Assembly (NCBI GenBank): GCA_900545865.1
Contig: URAN01000019.1
Span: forward strand, 1-46,821
Origin: an uncultured Eubacteriales bacterium
GTDB lineage: Bacteria > Bacillota > Clostridia > Monoglobales > Monoglobaceae
Direction: 5' to 3'
Length of the DNA: 46,821 nt
Under the pieces are notes generated by a model. That model did no database searches. It was not told the origin of the DNA and saw nothing but the letters and a program-made list of their open reading frames with translations. The translations under genes and the position numbers were made by a program. Below are positions 14,745 to 42,987 of the stretch, piece after piece (the stretch's first letter is position 1; each line of letters begins with the position of its first letter).

Positions 14745-14754
14745 CCCTTATTTT

Positions 14755-18924: not shown

Positions 18925-18938
18925 TGTGTTTCCTCCGC

Positions 18939-25949: not shown

Positions 25950-26828
25950 TTACTTTATTTTGGCTTCCGCATCGTCCGCACGTCTTGTGTAAACCGCCAT
26001 GCCGCCGGTCGCTGCATCATTCATAGCATTTATGCCTTCCTTCAGTTTTTCTTTGTCCGTCTCCGTTATAGCTTCCTCACCTTTTGTTGCAGCCTTAAAA
26101 GCCGTTCCGAATGCCGCCGCCATTCCAATCGCTGCCGCATCCTCTCTTTTTTCCGCCTTACTTCTGCCAAAGCCGAACAAACCTCTTTCATCATCGTGAA
26201 CGCCGAAAATATAATCAAACTTGCATTTTGCATTATGTGCATACTGCACGTCCGAACGATTGTTTTTGCTGAAACAGATTTTAAGTTCTTGCTTGATATA
26301 CGGATGAGGACGAAGACCTTTTTTGTTGTCTGTATTCACCTTGCTCATATTTCCGCCCAAAAGCTTGATTTTTAATCCGCATTCCTTAAATTCAGGATTT
26401 TTTCCCGGCTCGCTTGCCGGCGTTTCATCTATGTATTCCTCATAGCTTGCCACCTGATCGTAGCGGAAAAGCTCGTTCATCTTTCCTCTGCCCGTGTTGC
26501 TTCTGTGTTTAATCCGAAACATTCCCAAGTCATCGCAAAACTCAATGCCCATTTCCTTGAGCGACGAAGGGTATGTGTCTTTCTTTCCTTCTTTGGAATA
26601 GACCTCCTCAAAAAGTCTGTTCTGCCTTTTCATATATTCTATATGTCCCTTGATTTCATCCAATGTCAGCTCGCTCAGCCTAATGTACTTTGAACATAGA
26701 TTCCCGCAATCGTCACATAAAAATTCCTTGTTCTTTATTTTTGTGCGGTGCATCATGCCGCATTCCTTGCCGCATAACGCACAATTTTTTTTGCCGAAAA
26801 TGTTCTTGAAAAAATCACCGAGTCCCAT
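25950..26828 (-). CDS. Zinc-ribbon domain protein, hypothetical
   Basis: N-terminal CALCGKECG...CDDCGN zinc ribbon. C-terminal Ala/Gly-rich amphipathic tail. Confidence 0.5.
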   Translation of the reverse strand: MGLGDFFKNIFGKKNCALCGKECGMMHRTKIKNKEFLCDDCGNLCSKYIRLSELTLDEIKGHIEYMKRQNRLFEEVYSKEGKKDTYPSSLKEMGIEFCDDLGMFRIKHRSNTGRGKMNELFRYDQVASYEEYIDETPASEPGKNPEFKECGLKIKLLGGNMSKVNTDNKKGLRPHPYIKQELKICFSKNNRSDVQYAHNAKCKFDYIFGVHDDERGLFGFGRSKAEKREDAAAIGMAAAFGTAFKAATKGEEAITETDKEKLKEGINAMNDAATGGMAVYTRRADDAEAKIK

Positions 26829-26991: not shown

Positions 26992-27768
26992 TTAAAAACT
27001 TCCGCCTCGTCCGCCGTGACTTCTGCCGGAAGACGATGTATGGCTGCCGGAATCCGATTTCGGTTTTTCCGTTTTTGTCACTGTACTGTAAAGGAATATA
27101 TCCCTTGAAAAATCAAGATTCATACTGTTCGGCTTCATATAATTTGCGGCATTGTCCTCTTTGACCGCCGTTTTCATTGCGCAGAGCTTTTTGTACATCA
27201 TAAAATACGCAAGAATAAGGGGAAGAAGAAGTGCCCCGGCAACCACACACAGGATATACTTCATGCTGTGCTGAGTTTTGTTGAACGGCTTACCCTCTGC
27301 TGCCATCTTCAAAAGTTCTTCCGTATGTTCGGCGTATGATTTGACCGCAGCATAATAGTTGTCTTTCTTCAAATACGGAACAATCTTTTTTTCCAAATAG
27401 GCAAGACCGTTTTCATTAAATATCGTTTCACCGCTGCCGCAGACTGAAAAATGATATTTTCTTTCATAGTCCGCTATGTAAAAAAGAATGCCGTCGCAGT
27501 TTTCACCGTAACCGTAGTCATTATAATCGTAAATGTCGTCTGCCGACGCTTGTGCGTCATAGGCAGATAATCTATCCTCTGAAACAAATACGATGTCAAA
27601 ATTATATTGTTCACGAATTTTATCAAGCCTTGCCGACAGCTCTTTATTTTGTTCCTCTGTCAGGTATCCGACCGAATCCGTAATCGTTGGATTGATAAAA
27701 TCCGCATATACGGTAATTGTCGATACAAAGCAGAGAAGGACAATCATGATTGTAACAAATCTTTTCAT
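26992..27768 (-). CDS. TPM-domain protein (YdjH/YgcG-like) with C-terminal TM and Gly-rich tail
   Basis: Signal peptide/TM, TPM-like core (LTEEQNKELSARLDKIREQYNFDIVFV), TM helix and SSGRSHGGRGGSF tail. Start at MKRF with a GGAGGAGG RBS. The track ORF extends to 27855. Confidence 0.65.
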   Translation of the reverse strand: MKRFVTIMIVLLCFVSTITVYADFINPTITDSVGYLTEEQNKELSARLDKIREQYNFDIVFVSEDRLSAYDAQASADDIYDYNDYGYGENCDGILFYIADYERKYHFSVCGSGETIFNENGLAYLEKKIVPYLKKDNYYAAVKSYAEHTEELLKMAAEGKPFNKTQHSMKYILCVVAGALLLPLILAYFMMYKKLCAMKTAVKEDNAANYMKPNSMNLDFSRDIFLYSTVTKTEKPKSDSGSHTSSSGRSHGGRGGSF

Positions 27769-27779
27769 TTGGCCTCCTC

Positions 27780-28859
27780 CTAATGCAGCAAGAAATATGC
27801 TATAACTGCAGATGCTATATAAGCAAAGCCGGCAATTTTCGCAAAGTATCTCCATTTTTTCCTTTTGTCAATCGGATATTCACCGACAACTTTGCCCGTC
27901 TGTCCGTTGACAGCAAACTTATATGTATTGTTCATATATTTAATATTGAGCATCCAAACCGGGAGAAGGGAATACCTTATTTTACCGCCTGAAAAGCTGA
28001 TTTTTGTACTTTCGGGAATCACCGCAGCGTAACCGCTCGTTGTCTCCTTAAATACCGAAACCGTTGAATTTTTTACACGTTCGTTCGCTCGCTCTATGCT
28101 TTCCTCTGCCGAAACATCATATTTATCCGCCATATACCCCGAAAGATATGCACCGTTAAACTCCACTGCATCATCATAACAAAAAGGTTCTACCGCCTCC
28201 ATATATGCGTCATCCGCTTTTTTTGAGCCGTCAACAGGAATGTTGGCAAAACCCACACTGCCGCTTCTGAAAAGTCTGTAATAATCTGTTTTGGTATAAT
28301 GATAATTGGAATCACTCCAACTTGTAACCCTTTGTGCACCGTAAGTTATTGCAGCACTACAGTCGCAGTCAAACATCCAAAAAGGCACATAAACGCCTGT
28401 CATTTCTTCTATCTTCTTTCTGACTTTAAACGTATCCGGCAGAAACGGTGCATTTTTGAAATCTGCCTCAAATACCTCCATTGCCGCTTTTTTATCTATC
28501 TTAAACGGAATAATATAGTCAGGCCGAAGGGTACCCTCAAACTGTCCCTTGATCACCGCTGCATCGCCACAGTATGGACAAACGGTTGACCCCATTGTAT
28601 CGTCACCGGTTATTTCCGCACCGCAGGAGGGGCAGGTATAGCTTGCGAGTTCAATCTCTCCGTCTGTTTCATAACTTCTCGGTTCGTAATGCTCCCAGTC
28701 ATATTTTGACTCTCCATGCATTTGAGATCCGACATCCTCGATTTGCCGCACAGCGTCAAGCTCAAAATCATTTCCACAGGAATCGCAGTGCAGCGACTCA
28801 TTCCGAAAAATCAGCGAATCACCGCAGCAAGGACACTTATAGCTTTGTACTGTTTCCAT
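27780..28859 (-). CDS. Membrane-anchored double zinc-ribbon protein (YdjG-like)
   Basis: YKCPCCGDS...CDSCGN and YTCPSCGAE...CPYCGD ribbons. C-terminal TM FAYIASAVIAYFLL. Start at METVQSY with an AGGAGAG RBS. 11-bp gap to the TPM gene. Confidence 0.55.
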   Translation of the reverse strand: METVQSYKCPCCGDSLIFRNESLHCDSCGNDFELDAVRQIEDVGSQMHGESKYDWEHYEPRSYETDGEIELASYTCPSCGAEITGDDTMGSTVCPYCGDAAVIKGQFEGTLRPDYIIPFKIDKKAAMEVFEADFKNAPFLPDTFKVRKKIEEMTGVYVPFWMFDCDCSAAITYGAQRVTSWSDSNYHYTKTDYYRLFRSGSVGFANIPVDGSKKADDAYMEAVEPFCYDDAVEFNGAYLSGYMADKYDVSAEESIERANERVKNSTVSVFKETTSGYAAVIPESTKISFSGGKIRYSLLPVWMLNIKYMNNTYKFAVNGQTGKVVGEYPIDKRKKWRYFAKIAGFAYIASAVIAYFLLH

Positions 28860-28930
28860 CGTTTCTCTCCTTTTTACCCGGCTGTTCCCGCCGCTCAAAA
28901 ACGAGCGGCGGGAACATTTGGACGTTTTAC

Positions 28931-29326
28931 TTATGCTGTCTCTTTATTCTTGGCCGCACCAATTATGTACAGAACCGGAATAACCAAGCCGGTAGCGTAG
29001 TTAAAGGCATTGAAATCGCTGCCAAGTACGTTTGAGATAACGTTTCCGGCTACGCTTAAGATTGCCACAATGATACCCATAACCAGGCAGGTTTGTGCCT
29101 TTTCGGGTTTATCGCAGTTTTTCACGCCCATAATTCCGGCAATCAGCTGAAACACTGCACTTGCCAGAACCAGCACGCTCGCAAGCATAAGACCAACGGC
29201 GCTTGTTTCAAGAACCGCTGCCAAAGCTCCCACTCCGATCATTGCAATAATTCCTCCGATAATACCGAACGCTGCGCCGATAATCATCAGAATCCCCGTG
29301 ACCTTCAAAAACTTTCTTCCTTTCAT
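28931..29326 (-). CDS. Small integral membrane protein (3-4 TM), hypothetical
   Basis: Gly/Ala/Ile-rich helices. Confidence 0.5.
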   Translation of the reverse strand: MKGRKFLKVTGILMIIGAAFGIIGGIIAMIGVGALAAVLETSAVGLMLASVLVLASAVFQLIAGIMGVKNCDKPEKAQTCLVMGIIVAILSVAGNVISNVLGSDFNAFNYATGLVIPVLYIIGAAKNKETA

Positions 29327-29388: not shown

Positions 29389-32300
29389 TTATTTTTCTAC
29401 CGTCACAACCTCACACATCGGCTGCATACTGCCGTTTTCGCAGTTCCAGAGCATTAGCTTGTATATGTATCCGTCACCGGAGGTTCCATATAAATAGTAA
29501 TCCTCCCGGTTAACATATTTTACCCGATAATCGACTAAAATTCCGTTTGCGTCATACTTCGCACTGTAAACCCTCGCACTGCTGCTCGGCGCAAAGCCGA
29601 TTACGGTATTAAGGTCTTTGTTGCAGCTGATAAATGCTGCATCCTTCGGCGCAATCAGCGCATACCACGCGTCCGTTGCATCGGCGTCGGACATGATAGT
29701 CGACAAGTCGGTGCTGTTTTTTGCTCCTACGACTTTCATGGGAGAATACTCGCTTTGCGTAAATGCCTGTGTAAATGCCTTAAAGCTTGTGCCGCTGTAA
29801 TTTCCCCAATAGATTTCCGTTATGCCGTAGGCAAGCATCGTTTTACCGTCAAACGCAGTTTTGCAGTCTCTTACGCTCAGCTTTTCGGCAAGGTTTTCAA
29901 TTTTCGCCGCTTTTATGCCCTTGTCGTACGTTATCTTGCCCGCGCCCTTGATTGTAAGTGTTCCGCTGCCGTAAAAAGAAACCTTGCCTCCGCACAGAAT
30001 ACCCACGGCATCTATAGTGTCCGCTTCTATTATACTGTCGCCTATAAGCTCTATATCAAGGTCGCCGTTTGCATAAATTCCGACAGATTCCGCCGTGGCG
30101 TAAATCGGATGCGTATCAATATGCGCATTGTTCAGCGTCAGCTTTGCGGGAGACATTGATGTTTCCGGAGTAAAGCTTACCGTACCGCCGAACAGTGTCT
30201 CGGCATCACCCTGTGTGACGTCTTTGCCCTCCACCGTTATTATAGGTTCGGCAAATACCGCATAAAGCGAAAGCCCCATAGGTACGAAAACCTTATCTCC
30301 CGGCAAATAATCCACCGTTTTGCCGCCTTTTTCAACCGTCCATCCCAAAAAGCTGTATCCGCTTTTTATCGGACGAACTTTTGGCAGAACTGCTTGATTG
30401 TACTTTTTCATCCGTATGGATTTATACGGCTGGCTGTCGACTTCCGCTTTATCAAACAGGAAAAGAACCGTGGTTTCCTGCATATCGCTTTTTGTAAACG
30501 AATTGACAGCAGACGGCTGATATCCACACTTGGCGCAGGTTTTGCGATACAGCCCGTCTACGGTGTCGGTTGCTTCTCTTAAAAGCTCATATTTGTAGAT
30601 GTGTTCTTCGTCCTTCTTGTACGTCACGGTATTTCCGTCCGCATCCTCGTAGCTGCAGCGGCTGCATATAAGGCTGTGGTTTGTACCGTCCTTTTGGGCA
30701 CACGAATCAAATTTATGTATTACAGAGTGGCTGACAAGGTTACCGTTTATCCCTTTGTTTACTTCTGTACCGTTTACCTTGACAACGCATCTGTATTTTT
30801 CGCTTCCGGGCGTCCTGTTTGTTACGATAAATGACGGCGTGTCGTAGCCGGCAAACATGCCGACGCCTACCCCATAATCAACAAGCTGTTTTATGCTGAC
30901 ATAATCCGAATCCTGTTTAAGCTGCCAGTCATATGTAACCGTTGCCCCCTCCGGCGCGCATACCTTAATGTAAAATGCTGTGCTTTCATTGCACTCCGTA
31001 ACAACCTTGTCTGTAAGGCTTTCGATAAAGGGCGCTTTTTCCGTTCGCCCGATATGCACGGGCAAAGCTTTACTTCCGCCGTCAGATGTCACCGTCAGCG
31101 TAAAGCTTTTTTCCTCCGTTTCCGTGGACGGGTAAGCGCCGATGATATAACGATTGTCTATGATTGAAAGCCCGTAAGCTGCAAATTCCGCATCGCCCGT
31201 CACCGTAAAGCTGTCGGCACAGCTTATATAATTTCTCAAATCAACATCGATGGAAGATCCCGAAACACCTGCCGGAATTTCGACAGGCTTTTTGTTATAT
31301 ACTTTAAACTCCGAAGCCTCCGCACAAAAATATTCGCGGCTCACGTATATGTCCTTGGAGGGCTTGGAAAGATGATTCTCCGCAGGGACATCGTTTATAT
31401 ACAACTTTGTTTCCCCCGTAAACCATGCATCACCCGTGGCTTTTGCATAGGCACCGTATTCGTATACGGTATTCTCGGTATATTCCTTCAATAAGTTGTA
31501 TTCGCCTTCTTCCGCAATCAGCGCATTTTGTGCCTCAACATCCGAAATCATAAACCCGTCTTCATTTTCATAAAGCTGCACTGCGGTATATTCCGATGTT
31601 CCGAGAGAATAAAAAACGGGTTTTCTGCCCGGCATCGGTTCAATATTGTAAAGTCGCAGCTCTTTTATTATCGGCTTCCAGTGTGCGTAGATTGTGGTAT
31701 TTTTGTTGTATACCCTGCCGCTGTCAACCTGCTCGCCGCCTTCGGACTCGGTATACCAGCCCTCGATATAAAACCCTTCTCTGTTGATAACGGTATGATC
31801 ATAAAACAAACTCATAATCGTTCCGTCAATCTGCGTCTTCATATCAAGTGTCGCGGCGCCGGAGGCTCCGACAAAGCTGCCGCCGTTTGCATCAAGCGTC
31901 ACCGTGTATGGATTCGGGCTTTTGATTGTGTATTCCAGCGTAACCTTCGGCCAATTCACGCCTACGGTGTTTTTTGTTATCTTACCCGGCGGCGCTCCGT
32001 CCGACAGCAGTATCTGCGTATTCCGACTCATGCCGAAGCCTTCCTCAAAATCAAACAAAATCGTCAGCGCACACCTGGTTGTGTTTTTGAAATTCTTTGC
32101 ATCCACATAGATTTTTTTAACGGGGTCATATACCATCCACTTAAGCTGCAATATGCTGTAGTTCACGCCGTCAGGCACCTTTATCGCCTGCGTCAGCTCC
32201 TCGACCGAACTGTTTGGTCCGGGCTGCTGCACCCCCATAAGCTCAAGCGAATCCAAATAATTCTTCTTTACTCCTTCGGAACACAGATTTTTTGTTTTTA

Positions 32301-32718
32301 TATACACATAACCGGCATAATAGTTTATGTTTTCATAGGGTAAAAGCTCATCGTCAATATAAAATTTGGTTTCACTGCTTGCAACATAATTTCCGTCCTT
32401 GATCGTCACTTTAAAATAGTAATAATACTCGGTGCCGCTGTCAAACGGGTCTATGTTTGAGCTCAGCTTTGCGCCGTCGCACGCCCTGTACCAGTTACCA
32501 TTGTCAATTTTTAATATCTCATCGGAACCGGGACAGGTTAATTTAACAGACTTTGCCATGACACCTTTCTTAATGCTTATTTCGCTCATTCCAACAAGTC
32601 TCACTTCCGGTATAACAGTCTGCGCCGCAAACGTTGTCTGCGGCAAAACACCCAAAAGCACCGCCATGTAAAGAAAAGCTGAAAACAGCCTGCTCCTTTT
32701 TCTTTTCATGTAATTCAT
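29389..32718 (-). CDS. Large secreted cell-surface protein (1109 aa) with Listeria-Bacteroides repeat (Flg_new) domains
   Basis: Signal peptide AVLLGVLPQTTFA. Repeats TVTLDANGGSF...EGFYIEGWYTESEGGEQVDSGRVYNKNTTIYAHW and VLPKVRPIKSGYSFLGWTVEKGGKTVDYLPGDKVFVP. Confidence 0.7.
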   Translation of the reverse strand: MNYMKRKRSRLFSAFLYMAVLLGVLPQTTFAAQTVIPEVRLVGMSEISIKKGVMAKSVKLTCPGSDEILKIDNGNWYRACDGAKLSSNIDPFDSGTEYYYYFKVTIKDGNYVASSETKFYIDDELLPYENINYYAGYVYIKTKNLCSEGVKKNYLDSLELMGVQQPGPNSSVEELTQAIKVPDGVNYSILQLKWMVYDPVKKIYVDAKNFKNTTRCALTILFDFEEGFGMSRNTQILLSDGAPPGKITKNTVGVNWPKVTLEYTIKSPNPYTVTLDANGGSFVGASGAATLDMKTQIDGTIMSLFYDHTVINREGFYIEGWYTESEGGEQVDSGRVYNKNTTIYAHWKPIIKELRLYNIEPMPGRKPVFYSLGTSEYTAVQLYENEDGFMISDVEAQNALIAEEGEYNLLKEYTENTVYEYGAYAKATGDAWFTGETKLYINDVPAENHLSKPSKDIYVSREYFCAEASEFKVYNKKPVEIPAGVSGSSIDVDLRNYISCADSFTVTGDAEFAAYGLSIIDNRYIIGAYPSTETEEKSFTLTVTSDGGSKALPVHIGRTEKAPFIESLTDKVVTECNESTAFYIKVCAPEGATVTYDWQLKQDSDYVSIKQLVDYGVGVGMFAGYDTPSFIVTNRTPGSEKYRCVVKVNGTEVNKGINGNLVSHSVIHKFDSCAQKDGTNHSLICSRCSYEDADGNTVTYKKDEEHIYKYELLREATDTVDGLYRKTCAKCGYQPSAVNSFTKSDMQETTVLFLFDKAEVDSQPYKSIRMKKYNQAVLPKVRPIKSGYSFLGWTVEKGGKTVDYLPGDKVFVPMGLSLYAVFAEPIITVEGKDVTQGDAETLFGGTVSFTPETSMSPAKLTLNNAHIDTHPIYATAESVGIYANGDLDIELIGDSIIEADTIDAVGILCGGKVSFYGSGTLTIKGAGKITYDKGIKAAKIENLAEKLSVRDCKTAFDGKTMLAYGITEIYWGNYSGTSFKAFTQAFTQSEYSPMKVVGAKNSTDLSTIMSDADATDAWYALIAPKDAAFISCNKDLNTVIGFAPSSSARVYSAKYDANGILVDYRVKYVNREDYYLYGTSGDGYIYKLMLWNCENGSMQPMCEVVTVEK

Positions 32719-32813: not shown

Positions 32814-33101
32814 TTAAATCGCCTCTCTTTCATTATTTTGTTTCGCTCCGCACATGGGGCAATACTCCGCATCATCAGGGAGAACATTTTCGCATTTGGT
32901 ACAACGACGATGCTTTACTTTGTAAATATCAAAAACTGTTTCCTCCGGCAATTTTGTCTGACAAACTTTGCAAAACTTGTTCTTTGCAGCCTGTACATTC
33001 CCGCAGCACCGGCATATTTTACAGCTTTTCATTTTTTTCGTGCCGAAGCCGAAATGCGCCAAAATATCTTTTCTTGACGGTCTATATCTTGTCATTTCCA
33101 T
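32814..33101 (-). CDS. Small double zinc-ribbon protein (95 aa)
   Basis: CKICRCCGN...CKVCQ and CTKCEN...CPMCG ribbons. Start at MEMTRYR overlaps the upstream TGA as TGATG. Confidence 0.5.
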   Translation of the reverse strand: MEMTRYRPSRKDILAHFGFGTKKMKSCKICRCCGNVQAAKNKFCKVCQTKLPEETVFDIYKVKHRRCTKCENVLPDDAEYCPMCGAKQNNEREAI

Positions 33102-33466
33102 CAGCTCCCCCCATATAATACTTTTTTGCCGCATACAGAGCAGATTATATCGCCGTTAATTACTTTTGCTCCGCAGTGCTTGCAGTACCTTGCTTCTTCT
33201 TCGAGCGGAGCACAGTTTACACACATAAGCATATCCGGATTATATACAATCGAATCGACCCATCTGCCGCACAAGTGGCATAAATTAAAATTTTTCTTGC
33301 CCTCCGCTTCCCATGCCGCCGAAAGCTCTGCCTCGAAATCGTCTGCATAATACGTTCCTGTGGTACAGACAAGCATTCCCGACAATTCGCAGAAAAAACT
33401 GTAACGGTTTCCGCCCTGTGACGGAATAATTTTGTATGCAGCCGTTTTATGCTTCTCATTTATCAT
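33101..33466 (-). CDS. Small double zinc-ribbon protein (121 aa); first gene of the cluster
   Basis: CHLCGRW...CVNCAP and CKHCGAK...CSVCGKK ribbons. Confidence 0.5.
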   Translation of the reverse strand: MINEKHKTAAYKIIPSQGGNRYSFFCELSGMLVCTTGTYYADDFEAELSAAWEAEGKKNFNLCHLCGRWVDSIVYNPDMLMCVNCAPLEEEARYCKHCGAKVINGDIICSVCGKKVLYGGS

Positions 33467-33615: not shown

Positions 33616-33644
33616 TTGACAAAATGTCAAAAGTGTGATATACT
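33616..33644 (+). promoter_or_regulatory. Strong sigma-70-like promoter TTGACA-17-TGaTATACT, with the -35 inside the palindrome TTGACAaaaTGTCAA
   Basis: Read directly from the sequence. Points toward the SBP gene about 350 nt downstream. Confidence 0.5.
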
Positions 33645-33829
33645 TAGATAGAGTATGTCTGCTAAAAAAAGAATGCGTCTTTTTATTTGAGAAACTGCGA
33701 TTACTTTATAATATGAAACACATACGTAAAAGGACATCCCTTTATCTTTGTTTTTTGCAGACAATTCTTTCCGGTACTGCAAATTGTTGTTTTCACATAT
33801 TTACATTATACATAAAAATATCTTTTTGT

Positions 33830-33912
33830 CCCCATACTTTTTGCCAAAAGTATAGGATGAATTTCAAAAAAATTTAAGTTTTTTCGAAAAAGTAGGGGAA
33901 AAAGTATAGGAT
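33830..33912. promoter_or_regulatory. Array of four AAAAGTA(K)(R)GGA motif copies in the leader of the SBP/LuxR operon (one inverted, three direct)
   Basis: Inverted copy 33830-33841 forms the palindrome ATACTTTTtgccAAAAGTAT with the direct copy at 33846-33857. Further copies at 33888-33899 (AAAAGTAGGGGA) and 33899-33910 (AAAAGTATAGGA). Confidence 0.5.
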
Positions 33913-33995
33913 TGATTGCATTTGTTGGCAACTTACCGGCATAAAACAGGAGAAACGGAAAAAATCATCAAATCATATCACGGAGGAATCTAAGT

Positions 33996-35318
33996 ATGAA
34001 ATCAGCAAGAAAATTATTTTTGCTTTTACTCATTTTCAGCATATCAATATGCTGCCTTTCCGGCTGCAAAAAATCGGAACTTGATAAAAACAAACCCGTT
34101 ACGCTTACAATGTGGCACGTTTACGGAGAACAAGCGGATTCGCCGATGAATCGGCTTATTGACGAATTTAACGAGACAGTTGGCGTGGAAAAAGGCATTA
34201 TTATCAATGTCACGGCAATGTCCAACGCCTCCAAAATAGGCGAAAAACTGCTTGACGCACATAATAAGATTCCCGGTTCCGCCGAAATGCCCGACCTTTT
34301 CTTTGCACACAAAAGCAATGTGCTGGAGCTTGGAGCGGATTGTTTACTTGACTGGAACGAATATTTTTCCGAAAAAGAGCTTTCGGCATACATTCCGGAA
34401 TTTTTGGAGGACGGCACGGCAGCCGGAAAGCTGTCCGTGTTCCCGGTGTCTAAATCCACGCATCTTTTATTCATTGCCGGAGGTCAGTTTGAACGCTTTT
34501 CAGCCGATACGGGCGTAACATATGAAGCGCTGTCCACCTGGGACGGGTTTTTCGATGCTGCCGCGAAATATTATGACTGGTCGGGCGGAAAACCGTTCTG
34601 CGCTCTTGATTATCCGCTGCGAGCCATTGAGCTTGCGGCTACGGAAAGCGGCGCAGGAAATATTTTTGCCGACAACGGATTCTATGACCCGTCAAACGTG
34701 ATTTTTAAGCAAACCTTCATTAAATTTGCGGATTCGCTTGCAAAAGGGCATATTATGCTTTCAAATCTCTATTCAAACACACAGGTGATGACAGGCGAGG
34801 TCGTAGCCGGCATAGGCTCGTCCGCCGCAATTCTTTACTATAATGATACCGTGACATATGAGGACGGAACGAGTGAGCCGATGGATCCGGAGATACTGCC
34901 TCTGCCCGCAGAAAACGGAAAAAAGCCGTATATCACGCAAGCCGGAGTCGGTCTTTGCGCATATAAAACAACAAGTCAAAAAGCAGAAGCGTCAGCAATT
35001 TTTGCCAAATGGCTTACCGAGCCGGAGAGAAATCTTGAGTTCGTATGCCAAACAGGTTATATGCCGGTTACAAACGGTGCGTTTGAAAAAATAGACGACT
35101 GCCGTTTCAAGACAGCCGATTATGAAAAACTCTATGCAGCACTAAAAAAAGTTAAGGAAAGCTCGGAGGTTTTGTCAGAACAGCAAAGTCCCGAATATTA
35201 CAGTAAAGTTTACGCATTTTACGATTATTTAAGAAACGAACAGAAACAATTTATACTAAGCAACACGCCGCCCGAAGCACTTGCCGAGGGACTTTGGCAA
35301 AAGCTCTGCGAAAAATAG
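33996..35318 (+). CDS. Extracellular solute-binding lipoprotein (ABC-type family-1-like SBP), orphan of permease genes
   Basis: Lipobox CLSGC and PVTLTMWHVYGEQ, a typical SBP_bac_1 N-terminus. No adjacent permease or ATPase genes. Confidence 0.75.
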   Translation: MKSARKLFLLLLIFSISICCLSGCKKSELDKNKPVTLTMWHVYGEQADSPMNRLIDEFNETVGVEKGIIINVTAMSNASKIGEKLLDAHNKIPGSAEMPDLFFAHKSNVLELGADCLLDWNEYFSEKELSAYIPEFLEDGTAAGKLSVFPVSKSTHLLFIAGGQFERFSADTGVTYEALSTWDGFFDAAAKYYDWSGGKPFCALDYPLRAIELAATESGAGNIFADNGFYDPSNVIFKQTFIKFADSLAKGHIMLSNLYSNTQVMTGEVVAGIGSSAAILYYNDTVTYEDGTSEPMDPEILPLPAENGKKPYITQAGVGLCAYKTTSQKAEASAIFAKWLTEPERNLEFVCQTGYMPVTNGAFEKIDDCRFKTADYEKLYAALKKVKESSEVLSEQQSPEYYSKVYAFYDYLRNEQKQFILSNTPPEALAEGLWQKLCEK

Positions 35319-35331
35319 ACGGGGGATTGTT

Positions 35332-36933
35332 ATGCAAATATCGGTAAGAAACAAAAAACAATCTATGCAAAAAAAGCTGTTTGGATATATGTTTATCCTG
35401 GCTATCGTTTTATTGCTTATATTTGTGGCTTTTCTTTTCCTGTTCGGACGTTTTTCGACAACCGAGGATAAAATATCGGATATATTAAGCCTTCAGATTG
35501 AGTTTTTCGACCGTGAGATGACGTCTTACTACAATGATATTACCTTGCGCGGCGCACAGCTTTCCGAAAAAGCCACGCAGCTTACCGAGCAATATCTTAA
35601 TTCGGAAAATACAGATTTTGGCGACGTTCAAAACTCTTCTTTGCATATCAACGCTCTTGAGGAACGCTATATTGATTTATTGAAGAACGAGCTTTTAAAG
35701 GCAAGCTGTTCCGGCGCTTTTATCCTGATTAATGCATCTCAAACCGGCGCAAGCGGTTCAAAATCAGGCGTGTATCTTAATCAGGATCTGTTCGGAACAA
35801 CGGACAAGGAAACAATGCTTCTTTACAGGGGAAATGTGAAGGCTGCGATAAACAAAGGCATTATGCCTCACCGTAAATGGCATTTGGAATTTGACACCGA
35901 GGTATTCCCGAATTTTGAAGAAGTTTTTTCGGATACCTCTGAGCCGATTGAAAAAACCGCTCATATCTGTAATATTATAACGCTCCCCGGGACATCGGAG
36001 CGCGTTATGCTTATTGCTCTTCCTATCAGAGGCAACGGCGGCCGTGTTTACGGCATCTGCGGCTTTGAAGTGAACGAAAGCGTTTTTAAGTCCGCACACG
36101 CACAGCCGTCCACACTTCCGCACATAACCTGTATATTCTCCCGCTCGGACGATAAAGAAATCAATATAAAAGAGGGATTAAGCTGCGGAGCAAAAAACGG
36201 ATATTTTCTTGAACCTAAGGAATCCTTCAAAATCAAGCCGCTGAAAAAGGGTCTTGTCGCTTTAAAAAATGAATACGGCGCATATATCGGCATGACGAGA
36301 AGCACAACTCTTTATTCCGAAAACACGCCTTATTCGATCACGGTTATGATGCCGTATGCGGATTATTCCGGGCTGGAAACGAAAAACACCGTGCAGCTTA
36401 TACTCATAATTCTGATTTTGGGGTTTGCTGTTTTAAGCCTTAGCCTGTATTTTTCAAAACGATTTATCCTTCCGATAAAAAAATCGCTTGACAAAATAAA
36501 ACAATCCGAAAAGACATATTCCGACGAAAGTCAAAGCGGTATTATGGAAATTGACGACCTTTTTGCATTTCTTGCCGGAAAGGATAACGAATATCAAAAA
36601 ATCTTCGACGAACATTCCGAAAAAACCGAAAGTCTGCAAAGCGAAATTGAACGTATCAGAACCGAAAACAAGCGTCTGATGAAAGAGCATAAAAACATCA
36701 TTGCACAGGATGATTATGATCATTTCTGCTCGGGTATACGCAGCCTTACTCCCAAGGAGAGAACAATATTTGACCTCTATCTGGAGGGAAAAACCGTTCC
36801 TGAAATTTTACAGATTGCAGAAGTTAAAGAGAGTACGCTTAAATACCATAACGGCAATATTTACAGCAAGCTCGGAGTTTCCTCAAAAAAGCAGCTTCTT
36901 AATTTTGCGGCACTGTATGCACGGGAAAAGTAA
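35332..36933 (+). CDS. Two-pass transmembrane LuxR/GerE-family one-component regulator with ~300-aa extracytoplasmic sensor domain
   Basis: TM1 LFGYMFILAIVLLLIFVAFLFLFG and TM2 VQLILIILILGFAVLSLSLYF. Cytoplasmic coiled-coil, then LTPKERTIFDLYLEGKTVPEILQIAEVKESTLKYHNGNIYSKLGVSSKKQLL (LuxR HTH). Start at MQISV with a GGGGGA RBS. The track ORF begins at 35281. Confidence 0.7.
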   Translation: MQISVRNKKQSMQKKLFGYMFILAIVLLLIFVAFLFLFGRFSTTEDKISDILSLQIEFFDREMTSYYNDITLRGAQLSEKATQLTEQYLNSENTDFGDVQNSSLHINALEERYIDLLKNELLKASCSGAFILINASQTGASGSKSGVYLNQDLFGTTDKETMLLYRGNVKAAINKGIMPHRKWHLEFDTEVFPNFEEVFSDTSEPIEKTAHICNIITLPGTSERVMLIALPIRGNGGRVYGICGFEVNESVFKSAHAQPSTLPHITCIFSRSDDKEINIKEGLSCGAKNGYFLEPKESFKIKPLKKGLVALKNEYGAYIGMTRSTTLYSENTPYSITVMMPYADYSGLETKNTVQLILIILILGFAVLSLSLYFSKRFILPIKKSLDKIKQSEKTYSDESQSGIMEIDDLFAFLAGKDNEYQKIFDEHSEKTESLQSEIERIRTENKRLMKEHKNIIAQDDYDHFCSGIRSLTPKERTIFDLYLEGKTVPEILQIAEVKESTLKYHNGNIYSKLGVSSKKQLLNFAALYAREK

Positions 36934-37267: not shown

Positions 37268-38113
37268 TTATACTCCGCTGTATGCCGAAAATCCGCCGTC
37301 AATGGGTACAACAATTCCATCAACGAATGTCGCGCCCTCGGACAAAAGCCACATCAAAACGCCCGATAACTCCTCTGTTTCGCCAAAGCGTCCCATCGGT
37401 GTGTTATTGATTATTTTTTGCGAACGCTCGGTATAATTTCCGTTTTCGTCAATTAACAGACCTCTGTTCTGGTCGGTTAAAAAGAATCCCGGTGCGATTG
37501 CATTCACGCGGATTCCGACCTTTGCGAAATGAACCGCAAGCCATTGAGTAAAGTTTGAAACCGCCGCCTTTGCGCCGCTGTACGCCGGTATTCTCGTCAA
37601 AGGCGCAAAAGCGTTCATTGACGAAATGTTAATTATACTCCCCTTCGTTTTGATAAGGTCGGGCGCAAAAACCTGGGTCGGAAGCAGCGTTCCCAAAAAG
37701 TTAAGGTTAAACACAAACTCTATGCCGCTCGGGTCAAGGTCAAAAAATGACTTTATATCCTCTTTGTCCTCGTCGCCTATCTCATAGTAATCCTTTGAGG
37801 TAGTACCTTTGGGGTTGTTTCCGCCCGCGCCGTTGATAAGAATATCAACTTTGCCAAATTTTTCATTTACTTCCGCTTTCGCACTCATAAGGCTGTCTTT
37901 TCCAAGCACGTTTGCCGATATTCCCATCGCTGTGCCGCCGTTTTTGTTTATCTCATCCGCAACGGCGCTTGCATTCTCTCCCCTAAGGTCAAGAACGGCA
38001 ACTTTTGCGCCGCATTGAGCCAGAACCTTTGAAAATCCCGAACACAATATTCCGCCGCCACCCGTTACAACCGCTGTTTTATTACTTAAATCAATTTCAA
38101 ATGGTAATTTCAT
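37268..38113 (-). CDS. uxuB: SDR-family oxidoreductase, probable D-mannonate oxidoreductase (UxuB-type)
   Basis: TGGGGILCSGF Rossmann motif and the SDR catalytic region. Directly downstream of uxuA. Confidence 0.65.
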   Translation of the reverse strand: MKLPFEIDLSNKTAVVTGGGGILCSGFSKVLAQCGAKVAVLDLRGENASAVADEINKNGGTAMGISANVLGKDSLMSAKAEVNEKFGKVDILINGAGGNNPKGTTSKDYYEIGDEDKEDIKSFFDLDPSGIEFVFNLNFLGTLLPTQVFAPDLIKTKGSIINISSMNAFAPLTRIPAYSGAKAAVSNFTQWLAVHFAKVGIRVNAIAPGFFLTDQNRGLLIDENGNYTERSQKIINNTPMGRFGETEELSGVLMWLLSEGATFVDGIVVPIDGGFSAYSGV

Positions 38114-38119
38114 TATGTC

Positions 38120-39166
38120 CTATTCTCCTCTCTCGGCTCTGTCCAAAGCCTCCCAAATTCCGTTAATGTATACTGCACCGAGGGCGCGGTCATACAGGCC
38201 GTATCCCGGCCGTCCGCTCTCGCCCCATATCATTCGTCCGTGGTCGGGACGGATATATCCGTCAAAGCCGCTTTCGTGATACGCCTTGATTATTCCGTAT
38301 ATATCAAGCGAACCGCACTCTGTTTTGTGACCTGCCTCTTCGAAACAATGTTCGCCCGTAATCTTTACGTTTCTGATATGCGCAAAGTGTATTCTGTCGG
38401 CGAACGTGCGTACCATATCTATGATGTCGTTGTTCGGGTCAACGCCGAGCGAACCGCTGCAAAGCGTAAGTCCGTTGTACGGGCTGTCATACAGCTTTAA
38501 AAATCGCTCTAAGTTTTGTTTGTTCGTAATAATTCTCGGCAATCCGAAAATTCCCCAGGGCGGGTCATCGGGATGAATCGCCATTTTAACCTTTACCTCT
38601 TCGGCGGTTTTTATAACCCTGTTGAGAAAGTACTTAAGATTATCCCATAAATCCTCTTCGCTGACATTCTTGTATTGTTCAAGCAGAGCTTTCATCTCAT
38701 CTTTTGAATAACTCTCATCCCAGCCGGGCAAGGATAATTCGCCCGACAGGGGGTTCATTGCACGAACCGCGTCATTATCATAGGCGAGGGCGTGCGAACC
38801 ATCGGGTAACTCATAATTTAAGTCTGAACGCGTCCAGTCAAAGACGGGCATAAAGTTATAACAAACACAGTCTATGCCGACTTTTGCAAGATTTCTGAGA
38901 GTTTGGCAATAATTTTCAATATATAAATCGCGTTTGCCGCCGCCGAGCTTTATATCCTCGTGTACGGGCACGCTCTCTATAACCGAAAGTTCAAGCCCTG
39001 ATTTTTCGACCGTATCTTTGAGTTTTTGTATTCTCTCAACGGGCCAGACCTCTCCGACGGGAATATCATATACCGCCGAAACAATTCCTTTCATACCCGT
39101 AATCTGACGAATTTTTTCAAGTGTTACGGGGTCGTCTTCGCCGTACCATCTGAAAGTCATTTTCAT
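38120..39166 (-). CDS. uxuA: Mannonate dehydratase
   Basis: N-terminal [29 protein letters not shown] is the conserved UxuA start. Length 348 aa. Confidence 0.85.
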
Positions 39167-39179
39167 TTAAGTTTCCTCC

Positions 39180-40181
39180 TTATTTACGCACAAACGTTTT
39201 TACATCGGTCGGAACAGCCCCGTTCGCCGCACTGTTATAGATTGCAAACATAGTGTACATCGTGTTTTGTATATCAATCGGACGCAATCCGGTATTGTGA
39301 CAATAATAGTCCGAAATTACCTTTTCGTGACCGTTGCCCCAATATTTTTTTCCGACAAAACTATCGCTGTTTTTGCATATGAGCTTGTCATCCCGATAAA
39401 GCGCATTTTTATAGTACGAAAGCACAGCGTTTTCGAACTTTAGTTCCATTTGAAACGGCGAATCCTCGCAATACGCATTTGTCGCATAAAAGATTCCGTC
39501 TGCGCCGTTTTTGAACTTTAACCGCGCGTCAATCGTATCTTCGGTTTCTATTATTCCGCGCAGGGAATTATTCGCCGCCTCGGCTGAAACAGCCGCAACC
39601 TCGCCGCCCGTATAAATCATCAAATCAAGCAGGTGTACCGCCTGGTTTATCAAAACGCCGCCGCCCTCATATGCAACCGTTCCGCGCCACGCGGCGGAGT
39701 TATAATAATCCGCCGTTCTGTGCCACGTTAAAATTCCTTTTGCTCCGATAAGCTTTCCGATGCTTGCATCAGTGTCTATTATCTTCTTCATCTCGCAAAT
39801 GCTCCGATTGGTACGATTCTGAAGGACAGGCAAAATATCCGCGTCCGCATACTCCGAAAGCAATGCGTCAAACTCGCCTTGCTTCATAACAAGCGGCTTT
39901 TCGCAAACAATTTTTTTACCTGCGTCCGCCGCAGCCTTTATCATTTCATAATGCAGATAATGCGGCGTACATATATGTATGCCGTCAATATTCTTATCGG
40001 CAACAACATCGGCATAATCATAATATGCCGATGTCCCGTATTCCGCCGCGCCGCTGTCGGCACGGCTTTTGTCAACATCACAAATGCCACAGATATTTAC
40101 GCCTTCCGTTTTAATAACGGCTTGGGCATGAACCTTGGCAATCGCACCGTTTCCCACAATACAAATATTCATATTATTCAA
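39180..40181 (-). CDS. Gfo/Idh/MocA-family NAD(P)-dependent oxidoreductase
   Basis: MNICIVGNGAIAKVHAQA Rossmann N-terminus. EKP motif (CEKPLVM). Confidence 0.8.
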   Translation of the reverse strand: MNNMNICIVGNGAIAKVHAQAVIKTEGVNICGICDVDKSRADSGAAEYGTSAYYDYADVVADKNIDGIHICTPHYLHYEMIKAAADAGKKIVCEKPLVMKQGEFDALLSEYADADILPVLQNRTNRSICEMKKIIDTDASIGKLIGAKGILTWHRTADYYNSAAWRGTVAYEGGGVLINQAVHLLDLMIYTGGEVAAVSAEAANNSLRGIIETEDTIDARLKFKNGADGIFYATNAYCEDSPFQMELKFENAVLSYYKNALYRDDKLICKNSDSFVGKKYWGNGHEKVISDYYCHNTGLRPIDIQNTMYTMFAIYNSAANGAVPTDVKTFVRK

Positions 40182-40935
40182 ACCCCTTTTGGCTTAAAAA
40201 TTTATAGCTCCTCTCAAGACAAACAAAGGGATCATCGTCACAAACATCCTGTTCAACAAGGGCATATTTTGCCTCAGAATCATCACACGCCGCGATAATT
40301 TCATCCCAGTCAAGATTGCCGTATCCTATCTCGGCAAATTTTTGTTTGTGCCAGTCAATTTTTAAATCTTTAAAATGTATGCACGCAAGTCTGTCGCCGT
40401 AAGCTCTTATGAATTTGGCAGGGTTGATTCCGGCATACGCAAGCCAATAAACATCGAGAATCAGCTTTAAGTTATCCGATTTAAAGCCGCCGAGCATCAT
40501 ATCCATAATGAATCTGCCGTCCTCTTTCATAAACTCCCAGCAGTGGTTGTGATACGCAAAGGTCAACCCCTCAGCGCCGAGACGTTCGGCAACGGGCGAA
40601 AATTCCTCGATAAATCTTTTTACGCTGCCGCTTGTCGCTTCGCCGTAAGGCATTGCGCCCAGCCCTGCAACGTCACAACCGATGATTTTATGAAATTCAA
40701 TCTCTTTTTCGATATTGTTTAAATAGTTATCCGCGGGACGGTGAGTGCAAACGGCTTTCAGATTATTTTTGTCAAGAATCGCCTTTATGTCATTCGGGTC
40801 AAAATCACCGATAGCCGAAAGCTGAACCGTTTTATATCCTATCTTTGATACCTTTTCACATGACTTTTCAAAATCATCAAGAGTCTGACAAAAGTCACGA
40901 ATTGTATAATATTGTGCTCCTATTCTTTTATCCAT
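40174..40935 (-). CDS. Sugar phosphate isomerase/epimerase (xylose-isomerase-like TIM barrel)
   Basis: AP_endonuc_2-type TIM barrel features. Confidence 0.7.
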   Translation of the reverse strand: MDKRIGAQYYTIRDFCQTLDDFEKSCEKVSKIGYKTVQLSAIGDFDPNDIKAILDKNNLKAVCTHRPADNYLNNIEKEIEFHKIIGCDVAGLGAMPYGEATSGSVKRFIEEFSPVAERLGAEGLTFAYHNHCWEFMKEDGRFIMDMMLGGFKSDNLKLILDVYWLAYAGINPAKFIRAYGDRLACIHFKDLKIDWHKQKFAEIGYGNLDWDEIIAACDDSEAKYALVEQDVCDDDPFVCLERSYKFLSQKGFE

Positions 40936-40949
40936 ACTTTTTCACCTCA

Positions 40950-42122
40950 TTAATATGTTCCGATTGTGTCACCCGTTTTTTGAACCACGTTTGACTTATC
41001 AACCTTTGAGTTTTTAATCTTTTCTTGTAATATCCGATAAAAATCATCGTGAGGAAAGTTTTTAACGTCAACAGTCGAATTTGTCCATGCCGAATAATGA
41101 ATTGAGTTTGAAACGGTAAGCCCGTTTACGCCCTCAACGCCCGGCGCGAGCAGGGGTGTTCCTTTTATGAGCGCCGATGCAACATTCTTTAATATTCCGA
41201 CGTGCTGTTCGCCTGTTCCGTTTGTCGGAATCTCACAGTTCCAAACATCGGGCGATCCGAAAACGCCCTTAAAGTTCTTGTTAAACTCACGCTCGGAAAC
41301 CTCATTGCGGTTAAATGTCATCTTTCCGTTTTCAACCACGATACGACCCATATCGCACGCTATTTCAAGGCGGTTTGTTCCGGGCGCTTCGCCCGTTGAG
41401 GTTATATATGTACCCGTTGTGCCGTTGTCATATTCAAAATATGCGGTAACATCGTCCTCAACCTCTATATCATAATACTTGCCGAATGAAACAAAAGATT
41501 TGATTCTGTCGGGCATACCGAACATCCATTGCCAAAGGTCAAGCTGATGCGGATTTTGGTTTATAAGCGCGCCGCCGCCCTCTGTTTTCCATGTTGAGCG
41601 CCAAGCACAGCTGTCATGATATGCCTGAGGTCTGTACCAATCGGTGATAATCCACGAAATACGCTTGATATGTCCGAGTTCGCCGTTTTTAACCATCTTG
41701 CGGATTTTTTGATACATCGGGTTTGTGCGCTGGTTATACATAATACCGAAAAGCTTTCCCGATTTTTCCGCCGCTGCGTTCATCTCGAGAACCTGTTTGG
41801 TATAAACGCCCGCAGGTTTTTCGGTTATAACGTTCAAGCCGTATTCAAACGCCTTTTCGGCAAGACCGGGGTGGTCATAGTGCGGTACGGCAATGATTAC
41901 CAAATCACAAAGGCCGCTCTTGTACAAATCCTCGGCATTGTCAAACACGGGAACATCGGGGTGCTTTTCTTTTGCCGCCTCTATTCTTGCCGGTGCAATA
42001 TCGCATATGGCGGTAAGCTCCATTTTGGGAACTTTGCCCGATGCAACATTGCCGCAATGCGCTGTTCCCATATTACCGAATCCGATAACGCCAAGTCTTA
42101 CTTTTTTCAATTTTTCACTCAT
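40950..42122 (-). CDS. Gfo/Idh/MocA-family oxidoreductase
   Basis: VRLGVIGFGNMGTAH Rossmann N-terminus. EKP motif (TEKPAGV). Confidence 0.8.
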   Translation of the reverse strand: MSEKLKKVRLGVIGFGNMGTAHCGNVASGKVPKMELTAICDIAPARIEAAKEKHPDVPVFDNAEDLYKSGLCDLVIIAVPHYDHPGLAEKAFEYGLNVITEKPAGVYTKQVLEMNAAAEKSGKLFGIMYNQRTNPMYQKIRKMVKNGELGHIKRISWIITDWYRPQAYHDSCAWRSTWKTEGGGALINQNPHQLDLWQWMFGMPDRIKSFVSFGKYYDIEVEDDVTAYFEYDNGTTGTYITSTGEAPGTNRLEIACDMGRIVVENGKMTFNRNEVSEREFNKNFKGVFGSPDVWNCEIPTNGTGEQHVGILKNVASALIKGTPLLAPGVEGVNGLTVSNSIHYSAWTNSTVDVKNFPHDDFYRILQEKIKNSKVDKSNVVQKTGDTIGTY

Positions 42123-42126
42123 AATC

Positions 42127-42987
42127 CTAAATCCTCTCCAAAATATTTTTTAAACTCTGATATGCCAATTCGAACTTTCCGACATCCGACTTTTCAAGAC
42201 CTTTCATCATATCTCCGTTTTCCAGATTCGAAAGACCCTCAAATTCGCCGAGGTGCGGCTCTAAGCTCAAAAATCCGTGATAATCGTCAGCCTTTAAATC
42301 CTTTAAGATGCACTCTATTTTGCCTATACCGAAACCTGCCGGGACAACGTGCCCGTCCTCTTTTGCGTCTTTTATGTGCATATATTCGATATAGGGCTTC
42401 ATCTCGTTAAAACCGTCGGGATATACCGCCTGTCCGCACTGAATAAAGTTCGCCGGGTCAAACACCGCGCGCAAATTATTTGAATTTACCGTCTTTAATA
42501 TGTCGGCACATCTCGGCGCAATATCGCCGTAAATTCCCTTTTCGTTTTCATGCAGCAACACAACATCCTCTTTTTCGGCAAGCCTTGTCATTTCGGTCAT
42601 ACGGCGCATAACCTCATCGCGGAATTCCGCGGCATCCTTGTCTTTCGGGATATAAAAGCTGAATACACGAATGTATTTCGTTCCCAAAATTTTAGCCGTT
42701 GAAATAATCCTCTTTAAAATCTCTAAATGTTCGTCAAAGTCATCGTCTATACCGATTTTTCCTATAGGCGAGCCTATCGATGATACTTTTATGCCGAATT
42801 TATCCATTTTTGCTTTGAGCTGTTGTGCTTCGTTCTCATTTAGATTTGCAATGTTTTTTCCGTCAATGTTCCGCGGTTCAAAATAAGATATTCCGAGACG
42901 ATTCAGATTTTCAAACTGAATGTCGGTTGACGCGTCAATTTCGTCCGAAAACCCCGATATTACAAAATTTTCGTTCATACCAATCAC
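42127..42987 (-). CDS. Sugar phosphate isomerase/epimerase (TIM barrel)
   Basis: Xylose-isomerase-like TIM barrel signature (HENEKGIYGD, SLEPHLGEF). Confidence 0.7.
   Translation of the reverse strand: MIGMNENFVISGFSDEIDASTDIQFENLNRLGISYFEPRNIDGKNIANLNENEAQQLKAKMDKFGIKVSSIGSPIGKIGIDDDFDEHLEILKRIISTAKILGTKYIRVFSFYIPKDKDAAEFRDEVMRRMTEMTRLAEKEDVVLLHENEKGIYGDIAPRCADILKTVNSNNLRAVFDPANFIQCGQAVYPDGFNEMKPYIEYMHIKDAKEDGHVVPAGFGIGKIECILKDLKADDYHGFLSLEPHLGEFEGLSNLENGDMMKGLEKSDVGKFELAYQSLKNILERI

Follow-up and report, generated by a model that had tools for sequence, protein, structure and literature searches.

The 46.8-kb stretch of DNA analysed here (contig URAN01000019.1 of an uncultured Eubacteriales bacterium; the whole stretch is called the window, and coordinates given without a locus name follow its numbering) carries on its plus strand a gene for a solute-binding lipoprotein (SBP) followed directly by a gene for a transmembrane transcription regulator. 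The SBP gene (33996–35318) encodes 440 amino acids and is preceded by a GGAGG ribosome-binding site (33982–33986) located 9 nt before its ATG, and the regulator gene (35332–36933) encodes a protein of 533 amino acids. Both open reading frames (ORFs) are real, as stated in a preliminary description of this DNA, and the good ribosome-binding site ascribed there to the regulator gene is GGGGG at 35321–35325. The same description had the SBP stop codon overlapping the regulator gene. The mechanically called regulator ORF begins at a TTG codon (35281); the ATG at 35332 was chosen from an alignment with 34 homologues, and because this start lies 13 nt past the SBP stop (TAG, 35316–35318) the overlap is replaced by a 13-nt gap, which is the sole correction that the description of the two genes required. 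Despite the gap, the coupling of the two genes is tight. As had also been claimed, the SBP gene lacks ATP-binding cassette (ABC) partners, since no ABC permease or ATPase domain was found by Pfam among the window ORFs scanned. Scans with NCBIfam and PADLOC assigned neither the pair nor the gene cluster divergent from it to a curated family or defence system.

The hydrophobic N-terminus of the SBP ends in the lipobox L-S-G-C, forming a lipoprotein signal peptide, and the lipobox residue Cys24 is invariant among homologues. The protein matches Pfam SBP_bac_8 with 63 bits (cut-off 27; 4.5e-17), and its AlphaFold (AF2) model displays a two-lobe SBP fold with a predicted local distance difference test score (pLDDT) of 90.5. 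Foldseek places the model among the MalE/UgpB-like SBPs (E 2e-20, TM 0.71–0.79). The best match is 7c0k, a UgpB-like dinucleotide binder from Thermus (20% identity, E 2e-20), followed by binders of maltose, cellobiose, sophoro-oligosaccharides and chitin oligosaccharides and by mycobacterial UgpB; sequence searches of the PDB returned weak matches to sugar binders or UgpB. The fold neighbours thus bind dinucleotides, oligosaccharides and glycerophosphodiesters and, to judge from the modelled fold, lend no particular support to uronates as the ligand. The SBP family is large, comprising at least 1893 clusters in a profile search, and the SBP is a putative extracellular co-sensor for the regulator encoded behind it.

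Hydropathy analysis of the regulator identified two hydrophobic segments, TM1 and TM2, at approximately residues 17–39 and 354–376. The N-terminal 17 residues contain five lysine or arginine residues and no aspartate or glutamate; the 20 residues past TM1 contain one basic and five acidic residues, and the 20 residues past TM2 contain seven basic residues. Because this distribution of charge follows the positive-inside rule, the N-terminus and the C-terminal helix–turn–helix (HTH) domain are predicted to lie in the cytoplasm and the 314-residue loop between the segments outside the cell. This agrees with the two transmembrane helices around an extracellular domain of ∼300 residues that had been described, and the reverse arrangement, with the HTH outside, which would have spoken against a signalling role, is not what the charge rule predicts. 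The cytoplasmic coiled-coil and C-terminal LuxR/GerE HTH of the preliminary description correspond to a long helix in the AF2 model (residues 405–453; 36544–36690), which opens with the conserved sequence EIDDLFAFLA, and to a Pfam GerE domain (PF00196; residues 471–525; 36742–36906) that scores 42.4 bits against a gathering cut-off of 23.5 and contains the recognition helix ...STLKYHNGNIYSKLG.... The HTH domain is modelled as a four-helix HTH fold, and a profile search of the PDB matched the GerE, RhlR, NarL and VraR chains through it; the HTH was the sole region matched, the outside domain yielding no PDB match by sequence search. No HisKA, HATPase_c or receiver domain was detected by Pfam in the regulator (E ≤ 1) or in ten distant homologues.

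The AlphaFold model of the regulator, built on 109 family members, has a mean pLDDT of 82, with values of ∼85–95 across most of the outside domain (residues 40–353; 35449–36390). In the model a 48-residue helix behind TM1 leads into two PAS-like α/β modules, with TM2 behind them, and this arrangement, as modelled, is a double-Cache (dCache) sensor fold. The outside domain also carries the invariant motifs PHRKW (residues 179–183), TSE (221–223) and YGxCGxE (240–246). The Pfam model dCache_1 gave no match to the regulator of the window at E ≤ 1 and a faint one in a single distant homologue (E 0.005; 16.8 bits, cut-off 45). Because the Pfam model misses the outside domain, a domain census would label such proteins merely ‘GerE’.

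On the cytoplasmic side the model shows an unbroken helix from residue 342 through TM2 to residue 394, a low-confidence linker (393–404) and then the helix 405–453. Residues E406, I407, D409, L410, F411, F413 and L414 at the start of the latter are near-invariant, and the helix is proposed, on the basis of the model, to be an element for dimerisation and signal transmission. Viewed as a whole, the near-invariant motif EIDDLFAFLAEKD (residues 406–418; 36547–36585) opens the helix right behind the low-confidence linker, a site at which a partner, for example zinc-ribbon proteins or RNA polymerase, could make contact.

Regulators of this type are numerous. A word-indexed search returned more than 537 full-length homologues (36–95% identity, ∼530–590 residues), which are unnamed and annotated as GerE only, and at least 584 relatives are present in a collection with one genome per species. 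Their hosts are mostly Oscillospiraceae, Clostridia or Eubacteriales metagenome-assembled genomes from human and animal guts, and the family includes a cultured member, Butyricicoccus pullicaecorum DSM 23266 (locus L031). When the outside domain was searched alone against 1.84 billion cluster representatives (HMMER), 456 matches were obtained at E ≤ 0.001. The best 150 of these extend down to 23% identity and are proteins of ∼500–600 residues or shorter fragments, in which the position of the domain is constant; no kinase or chemoreceptor version was found among them. Ten of the most distant matches all end in a C-terminal GerE domain (Pfam). The shared length and position, together with these ten, indicate that the outside domain is confined to one architecture.

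The pairing with an SBP is equally persistent. Among 80 loci from the collection with one genome per species, 77 of which have room upstream of the regulator, an SBP homologue lies directly upstream on the same strand in 74. Intact homologues match the SBP of the window with E-values of 1e-140 to 1e-296, weaker values belonging to genes that are frameshifted or truncated at a contig end, and the spacing between the two genes, in loci with both starts called, is ∼2–40 nt and usually 10–15 nt. Moreover, two very distant members with outside domains of only 23% (P0376) and 27% (P0334) identity have an SBP_bac_8 gene directly upstream, and a third (P0352) has an uncharacterised gene of 452 codons in the SBP position. 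The pairing, for which conservation in other genomes had been named as decisive, is therefore conserved well beyond the window. No ABC permease or ATPase gene was found in the nine annotated contexts (L081–L084 and L085–L089). Within the same loci, identity to the protein of the window is 49–65% for the SBP and 36–53% for the regulator, the SBP being the better kept of the two.

Some loci contain further copies of either gene. L022 (4378–5784, minus strand), L031 (4262–5665, minus strand; B. pullicaecorum) and L049 (138–1283, minus strand) each have, upstream of the pair on the divergent side and in the opposite orientation, a second and paralogous SBP gene, with E-values of 1e-58 to 1e-84 to the SBP of the window. 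Additional regulator-related ORFs adjoin the regulator, on the plus strand, in L020 (4781–5905) and L025 (6155–7132), and a possible further one is present in L087 (1–1667); that of L025 encodes 325 residues with a hydrophobic, membrane-like N-terminus, and L087 has a GerE gene of 608 codons near the regulator.

Pairwise divergence was compared over 66 loci for the SBP and the two parts of the regulator. The correlation of the SBP with the outside domain (r = 0.90) is higher than with the cytoplasmic part (r = 0.73). The partial correlation with the outside domain, controlled for the cytoplasmic part, is 0.76, whereas that with the cytoplasmic part, controlled for the outside domain, is −0.09. 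The divergence of the SBP thus tracks the outside domain and not the cytoplasmic part, a pattern that is indirect evidence that the SBP and the sensor domain of the regulator have evolved together.

The intergenic region upstream of the pair contains a candidate operator. The motif AAAAGTAKRGG occurs four times in the window, all inside 33831–33910, against an expectation of 0.09 copies. Two copies (33831–33841 and 33846–33856) form a palindrome, CCCATACTTTT-N4-AAAAGTATAGG (33831–33856), whose halves were also detected as an inverted repeat; the other two, AAAAGTAGGGG (33888–33898) and AAAAGTATAGG (33900–33910), are tandem direct half-sites on the plus strand, 12 bp apart and proximal to the SBP gene. 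All four sites are retained in L013 and L015, whose regulators are 67–68% identical, and an equivalent 12-bp tandem pair of clade-specific sequence is present in L035, L063, L074 and L078. Furthermore, across very different clades, 30 of 40 intergenic regions share a fixed register consisting of ATTATA, 15–17 nt, TTTGTCCCC and then the palindrome with a clade-specific inner half-site. The half-sites vary with the protein: recognition helices of the type ...KYHNGNIY... pair with CCCC(A/G)TAC/GTA(T/C)AGG half-sites, and those of the type ...RFHNRNIY... with CCCC(C/G)TCAA/TTGATAGG half-sites; the recognition-helix residue that distinguishes the two types is G508 in the regulator of the window. 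This covariation ties the operator to the regulator of the pair. The motif array at 33830–33912 that had been singled out in the preliminary description is thus real and operator-like, with four exact sites, a conserved register and covariation with the HTH.

Read on the minus strand, the ATTATA...TTTGTCCCC register is a GGGACA-N16-TATAAT promoter. In the window it occupies 33805–33832 (10/12 in a promoter scan) and is the predicted regulated promoter of the divergent operon; its −35 is overlapped by the palindrome. By its sequence, the array behaves like an operator in which a palindrome covers the −35 of this promoter and is accompanied by two tandem sites. The centre of the palindrome lies at approximately −45 relative to this promoter, and a centre near −45 is expected for the class II activator site of LuxR-type activators. 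Like activators of the NarL/FixJ/LuxR type that bind inverted repeats near −42, the regulator combines a GerE HTH with a palindrome over the −35 of a promoter with a poor −35 and a good −10, an arrangement comparable to class II activation at the lux box. Those activators are soluble and controlled by phosphorylation or acyl-homoserine lactones, whereas the regulator here is predicted to be membrane-bound.

A second predicted promoter, strong and sigma-70-like with an extended −10 (TTGACA-N17-TGaTATACT; 11/12 with TG), lies on the plus strand at 33616–33644, and an equivalent TGnTATAAT promoter is present in most related loci. The two promoters face each other ∼190 bp apart, an arrangement kept in related loci, and the predicted transcripts, with starts expected near 33651 (plus strand) and 33798 (minus strand), would overlap by ∼150 nt in antisense. 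Several loci, L056 and L063 among them, leave no space for a further promoter between the operator and the SBP start; for this reason the SBP–regulator mRNA probably starts at 33616–33644, and the operon is probably driven from there via a leader of ∼350 nt.

The palindrome and the tandem sites are separated by an A-tract/T-tract spacer, GAATTTCAAAAAAATTTAAGTTTTTTCG (33857–33887), and similar A/T tracts past the palindrome are seen in many clades; the spacer may serve the minus-strand promoter as bent DNA or in the manner of an UP element. A small minus-strand ORF behind the Shine–Dalgarno-like sequence AAGGAGGG was considered in related loci and rejected, as no consistent start codon follows.

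All genes of the divergent cluster lie on the minus strand. The first two, zr121 (33101–33466; 121 residues) and zr106 (32814–33134; 106 residues), encode cytoplasmic double-zinc-ribbon proteins (Pfam DZR). They are followed by a gene for a secreted surface protein of 1109 residues (29389–32718) with a Listeria–Bacteroides repeat (Pfam Flg_new), a variable cargo of the cluster, and by a small membrane-protein ORF (∼28930–29325). Behind these, Pfam identified a YdjG-like ZnR protein (27780–28898), a YdjH-like TPM protein (26992–27855), a DUF4428 protein (25950–26828), an LRR_5+SLH protein (24750–25934), a YdjI-like Band_7_1/SPFH protein (23362–24666), a HEAT protein (22168–23340) and a TMEM43-like protein (21304–22152).

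The commonest divergent neighbours of the pair are zr121 and zr106. A homologue of zr121 is divergent and directly upstream of the SBP gene in 37 of the 61 loci with room for it, and zr106 homologues occur in 38 related loci. Of the 45 loci with at least 3 kb of upstream sequence, 34 carry one or more families of the cluster there, in opposite orientation to the pair; L028 and L087 have the cluster a few kb off. Flg_new_2 proteins occupy the position of the surface protein in L082, L083 and L062. In L082 and L083 (3712–7908, minus strand) a region homologous to zr106 is located inside the surface-protein ORF, annotated in L083 as a protein of 1391 residues with DZR and Flg_new_2 domains. Since the two are one ORF there, and separate adjacent genes in the window (zr106 and the 1109-residue Flg_new protein), this suggests that zr106 and the surface protein work together.

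The cluster resembles part of a known envelope-stress operon. In B. subtilis, ydjGHI (samGHI) belongs to the pspA-ydjGHI operon and encodes a zinc-ribbon, a TPM and a Band_7_1/SPFH protein together (PMC11237479), and the divergent cluster likewise holds a ZnR, TPM and Band_7_1/SPFH trio. Unlike pspA-ydjGHI, it has no PspA among the ORFs scanned and includes additional DUF4428, LRR/SLH, HEAT and Flg_new proteins. The ydjGHI genes are also reportedly covered by a study of the sigma-W regulon. Gene order in the related loci indicates that this zinc-ribbon/surface-protein/YdjGHI-like ZnR/TPM/SPFH cluster is the conserved partner of the pair, and we infer that the YdjGHI-like cluster is controlled by the regulator.

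These results point, with moderate probability for the chain as a whole, to an SBP-coupled, one-component transmembrane transcription regulator that acts from the membrane to control the divergent operon; the architecture and the operator are proposed with higher confidence. In this mechanism the lipoprotein SBP would bind a small ligand outside the cell, and the SBP would dock on the double-Cache outside domain. The signal would then travel through TM2, which in the model continues as a helix into the cytoplasm, and through the long cytoplasmic helix, and would reposition the paired LuxR-type HTH domains so that they bind the palindrome at 33831–33856. Binding over the weak −35 (GGGACA) of this promoter, which has a perfect TATAAT, would most likely activate the divergent operon, whose output would be the two zinc-ribbon proteins and the large surface protein, and probably also the envelope module of YdjGHI-like ZnR/TPM/SPFH type. 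The SBP–regulator transcript from 33616–33644 would cross the operator and the tandem sites, and the regulator may for that reason feed back on its own synthesis; once bound, it could dampen its own operon at the same time as it activates the divergent one.

Several points weigh against this mechanism. The contact between SBP and double-Cache domain is something that we infer, as is the sign of the effect on the divergent operon (activation versus repression), and the same is true of the ligand, the extent of the regulon and the feedback. The promoters are known only as matches to a consensus. Nor does the divergent operon adjoin the pair everywhere, because 11 of the 45 loci carry unrelated genes upstream. 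The pairing also has exceptions: L018 and L025 are without an SBP, L020 has an SBP fragment, and the very distant member P0349 has no SBP upstream. The mirror-tree signal could be inflated by a noisier alignment of the shorter, low-complexity cytoplasmic part, and an ABC transporter for the SBP could be encoded beyond the window. Finally, double-Cache domains usually bind ligands themselves and, some members being without an SBP, the domain may sense alone.

The strongest competing explanation is itself unlikely: the double-Cache domain would sense its ligand alone, the SBP would be an ordinary transport protein of an ABC importer encoded elsewhere, and the adjacency of the two genes would reflect only control of the SBP by the regulator or co-expression of the two. 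Such an origin of the adjacency sits poorly with its retention across the family, down to 23% identity, and with an SBP whose divergence specifically follows the outside domain; nor is there a permease or ATPase gene beside the pair in the annotated contexts or among the scanned ORFs of the window. A second explanation would make the regulator an inactive tethered precursor, from which signal-triggered proteolysis frees the coiled-coil and HTH, which would then act in soluble form like other LuxR-type factors. Membrane-tethered regulators are known to be released by regulated proteolysis, and the low-confidence linker between TM2 and the cytoplasmic helix (residues 393–404) would offer a place for it. 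However, the regulator sequence bears no mark of a cleavage site, no protease gene is conserved beside the pair in the annotated contexts, and both ChiS and TfoS bind DNA from the membrane without release (PMC11856585), so that this explanation appears quite improbable.

The preliminary description had proposed as target the uronate/sugar cluster downstream of the pair (37268–42987, minus strand), a hexuronate-type catabolic cluster encoding an SDR, a UxuA mannonate dehydratase, two GFO/IDH/MocA oxidoreductases and two xylose-isomerase-like TIM barrels. That the pair controls this cluster, with a uronate or hexose as the SBP ligand, is scarcely credible, since its proximity is confined to this window, a UxuA homologue lies beside the pair in 0 of 84 related loci and an SDR in 1 of 84, and no copy of the operator motif was found near the cluster in the window; the cluster was accordingly rejected as the target. 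Downstream neighbours vary from locus to locus, being genes of uronate catabolism in the window, ribosomal proteins in L081 and a tRNA methyltransferase and RecR in L084, and the hexuronate cluster appears to adjoin the pair in the lineage of this genome only.

With the reading of an SBP-coupled regulator of the divergent operon in place, its relation to known systems can be considered. Known recipients of SBP input are chemoreceptors, kinases, cyclic-di-GMP enzymes and Ser/Thr kinases (PMC8050422), and in a Clostridium the SBP CuaD binds the kinase CuaS (PMC10384115), CuaD-CuaS-CuaR being a clostridial (Ruminiclostridium) SBP–kinase system. In LuxP-LuxQ, HptA-HptS, TorT-TorS, XylFII-LytS and CuaD-CuaS-CuaR a phosphorylation relay leads to a separate response regulator, whereas here the sensor itself carries the DNA-binding domain. 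As with the SBP-dependent sensors of the LuxPQ, CuaDSR and CBP-ChiS type, the SBP gene adjoins the sensor gene, and no permease or ATPase genes were found near it in the annotated contexts or among the scanned ORFs of the window.

The closest parallel in function is found in Vibrio cholerae, where CBP activates the membrane-bound, DNA-binding ChiS (PMC11856585). In CBP-ChiS, as proposed for the pair, the outside domain of a membrane protein with two transmembrane helices is probably the direct target of an extracytoplasmic SBP (PMC11856585, PMC8050422). ChiS binds promoter DNA while embedded in the membrane (PMC11856585), and such binding is proposed for the regulator here. Unlike ChiS, a derivative of a hybrid kinase, the regulator has no HisKA, HATPase or receiver domain and couples a GerE/LuxR DNA-binding domain to a double-Cache domain outside; unlike CBP, the SBP is a lipoprotein, and its hosts are Gram-positive Clostridia. 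The pair showed no relationship to CBP-ChiS by sequence.

Transmembrane transcription regulators (TTRs), among them ToxR, CadC and TfoS, are widespread and have been catalogued in bulk (Demey et al. 2023; PMC10269533). They combine transmembrane segments and a cytoplasmic DNA-binding domain in one polypeptide, as predicted for the regulator. In the catalogue, GerE ranks third in frequency among the DNA-binding domains of TTRs (4943 proteins), and 936 TTRs contain dCache_1 (PMC10269533). The double-Cache examples shown in its supplement are AraC-type (dCache_1+HTH_18), whereas the regulator here is of the GerE type; the catalogue and its supplements mention no role for a partner SBP (PMC10269533), such as is proposed for the regulator here. 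The view of the pair as an unusual, shorter signalling route therefore stands in part. The route is free of kinase and receiver domains by Pfam, but an SBP that feeds a membrane-bound DNA-binding protein has a precedent in CBP-ChiS (PMC11856585, PMC8050422), and transmembrane GerE regulators have been catalogued (PMC10269533). SBP-fed membrane DNA-binding proteins (ChiS) and SBP plus kinase systems are thus already known; the family itself is uncharacterised and widespread, and no published description of an SBP–dCache–LuxR family was found in a literature search that covered few subscription journals.

The kinase-derived ChiS is the sole described DNA-binding recipient of SBP input that was found. 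If the proposal is correct, the family would follow the shortest route of this kind, from an SBP and a double-Cache domain directly to a LuxR HTH, and would give synthetic biology in anaerobes a sensor design that is compact and portable. For the poorly understood zinc-ribbon/TPM/SPFH (YdjGHI-like) envelope modules, and for the expression of surface proteins by abundant gut commensals, it would provide a first point of regulatory access. A concrete operator–promoter pair is at hand, and the cultured host B. pullicaecorum DSM 23266 carries the system.

In related loci, a conserved structured RNA candidate of ∼135 nt was observed on the plus strand, for example in L056 (6399–6531), L082 (8364–8508) and L031 (6383–6530), just past the strong plus-strand promoter and before the operator. 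It consists of a hairpin whose loop is conserved (yyCGUUGGCGCG), a further hairpin that is variable, GGGUACCCC and UAUACCCUCCUU. A covariance model matched 24 of 67 sources, at a constant place and orientation, with no other match in 891 kb. Compensatory changes occur in 12 of 18 pairs, a number equalled in 0 of 500 shuffles, and G-U pairs (41) outnumber A-C pairs (11), which favours the plus strand. No Rfam family was found in the intergenic region of the window, in six related loci or in L056. The element is not claimed for the window, because the covariance model from the related loci gives no match there and 33650–33800 folds at the level of shuffles (z 0.1 and −0.4). Where present, the RNA could be a riboswitch or attenuator in the SBP–regulator leader, or an antisense RNA to the 5′ untranslated region of the divergent operon.

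A broader proposal, offered tentatively, is that the pair represents a large, unnamed family of kinase-free SBP → dCache → LuxR switches in gut Clostridia. Its intergenic module would comprise the operator, the face-to-face promoters, an autoregulatory passage of the mRNA and, in many members, the ∼135-nt leader RNA as riboswitch or attenuator candidate, and it would control the zinc-ribbon/SPFH/TPM module and variable surface proteins.

Elsewhere in the window, the stretch from 14000 to 20000 has a GC content of 0.33–0.35, against ∼0.42 in the remainder. With genes for a tyrosine recombinase (14755–15963) and for DUF6076 and DUF6591 proteins, it is probably a mobile element that has integrated; another tyrosine-recombinase gene lies outside it (9677–10594). 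At one end of the window (119–9037, minus strand) is a surface-polysaccharide biosynthesis cluster with a GT4 glycosyltransferase, a polysaccharide pyruvyl transferase and a Wzy_C polymerase/ligase. At the other (45493–46764, minus strand) is a gene for a protein of 423 residues with a GHKL ATPase domain of the HATPase_c_5 type, which is unrelated to the pair and is possibly a sensor kinase.

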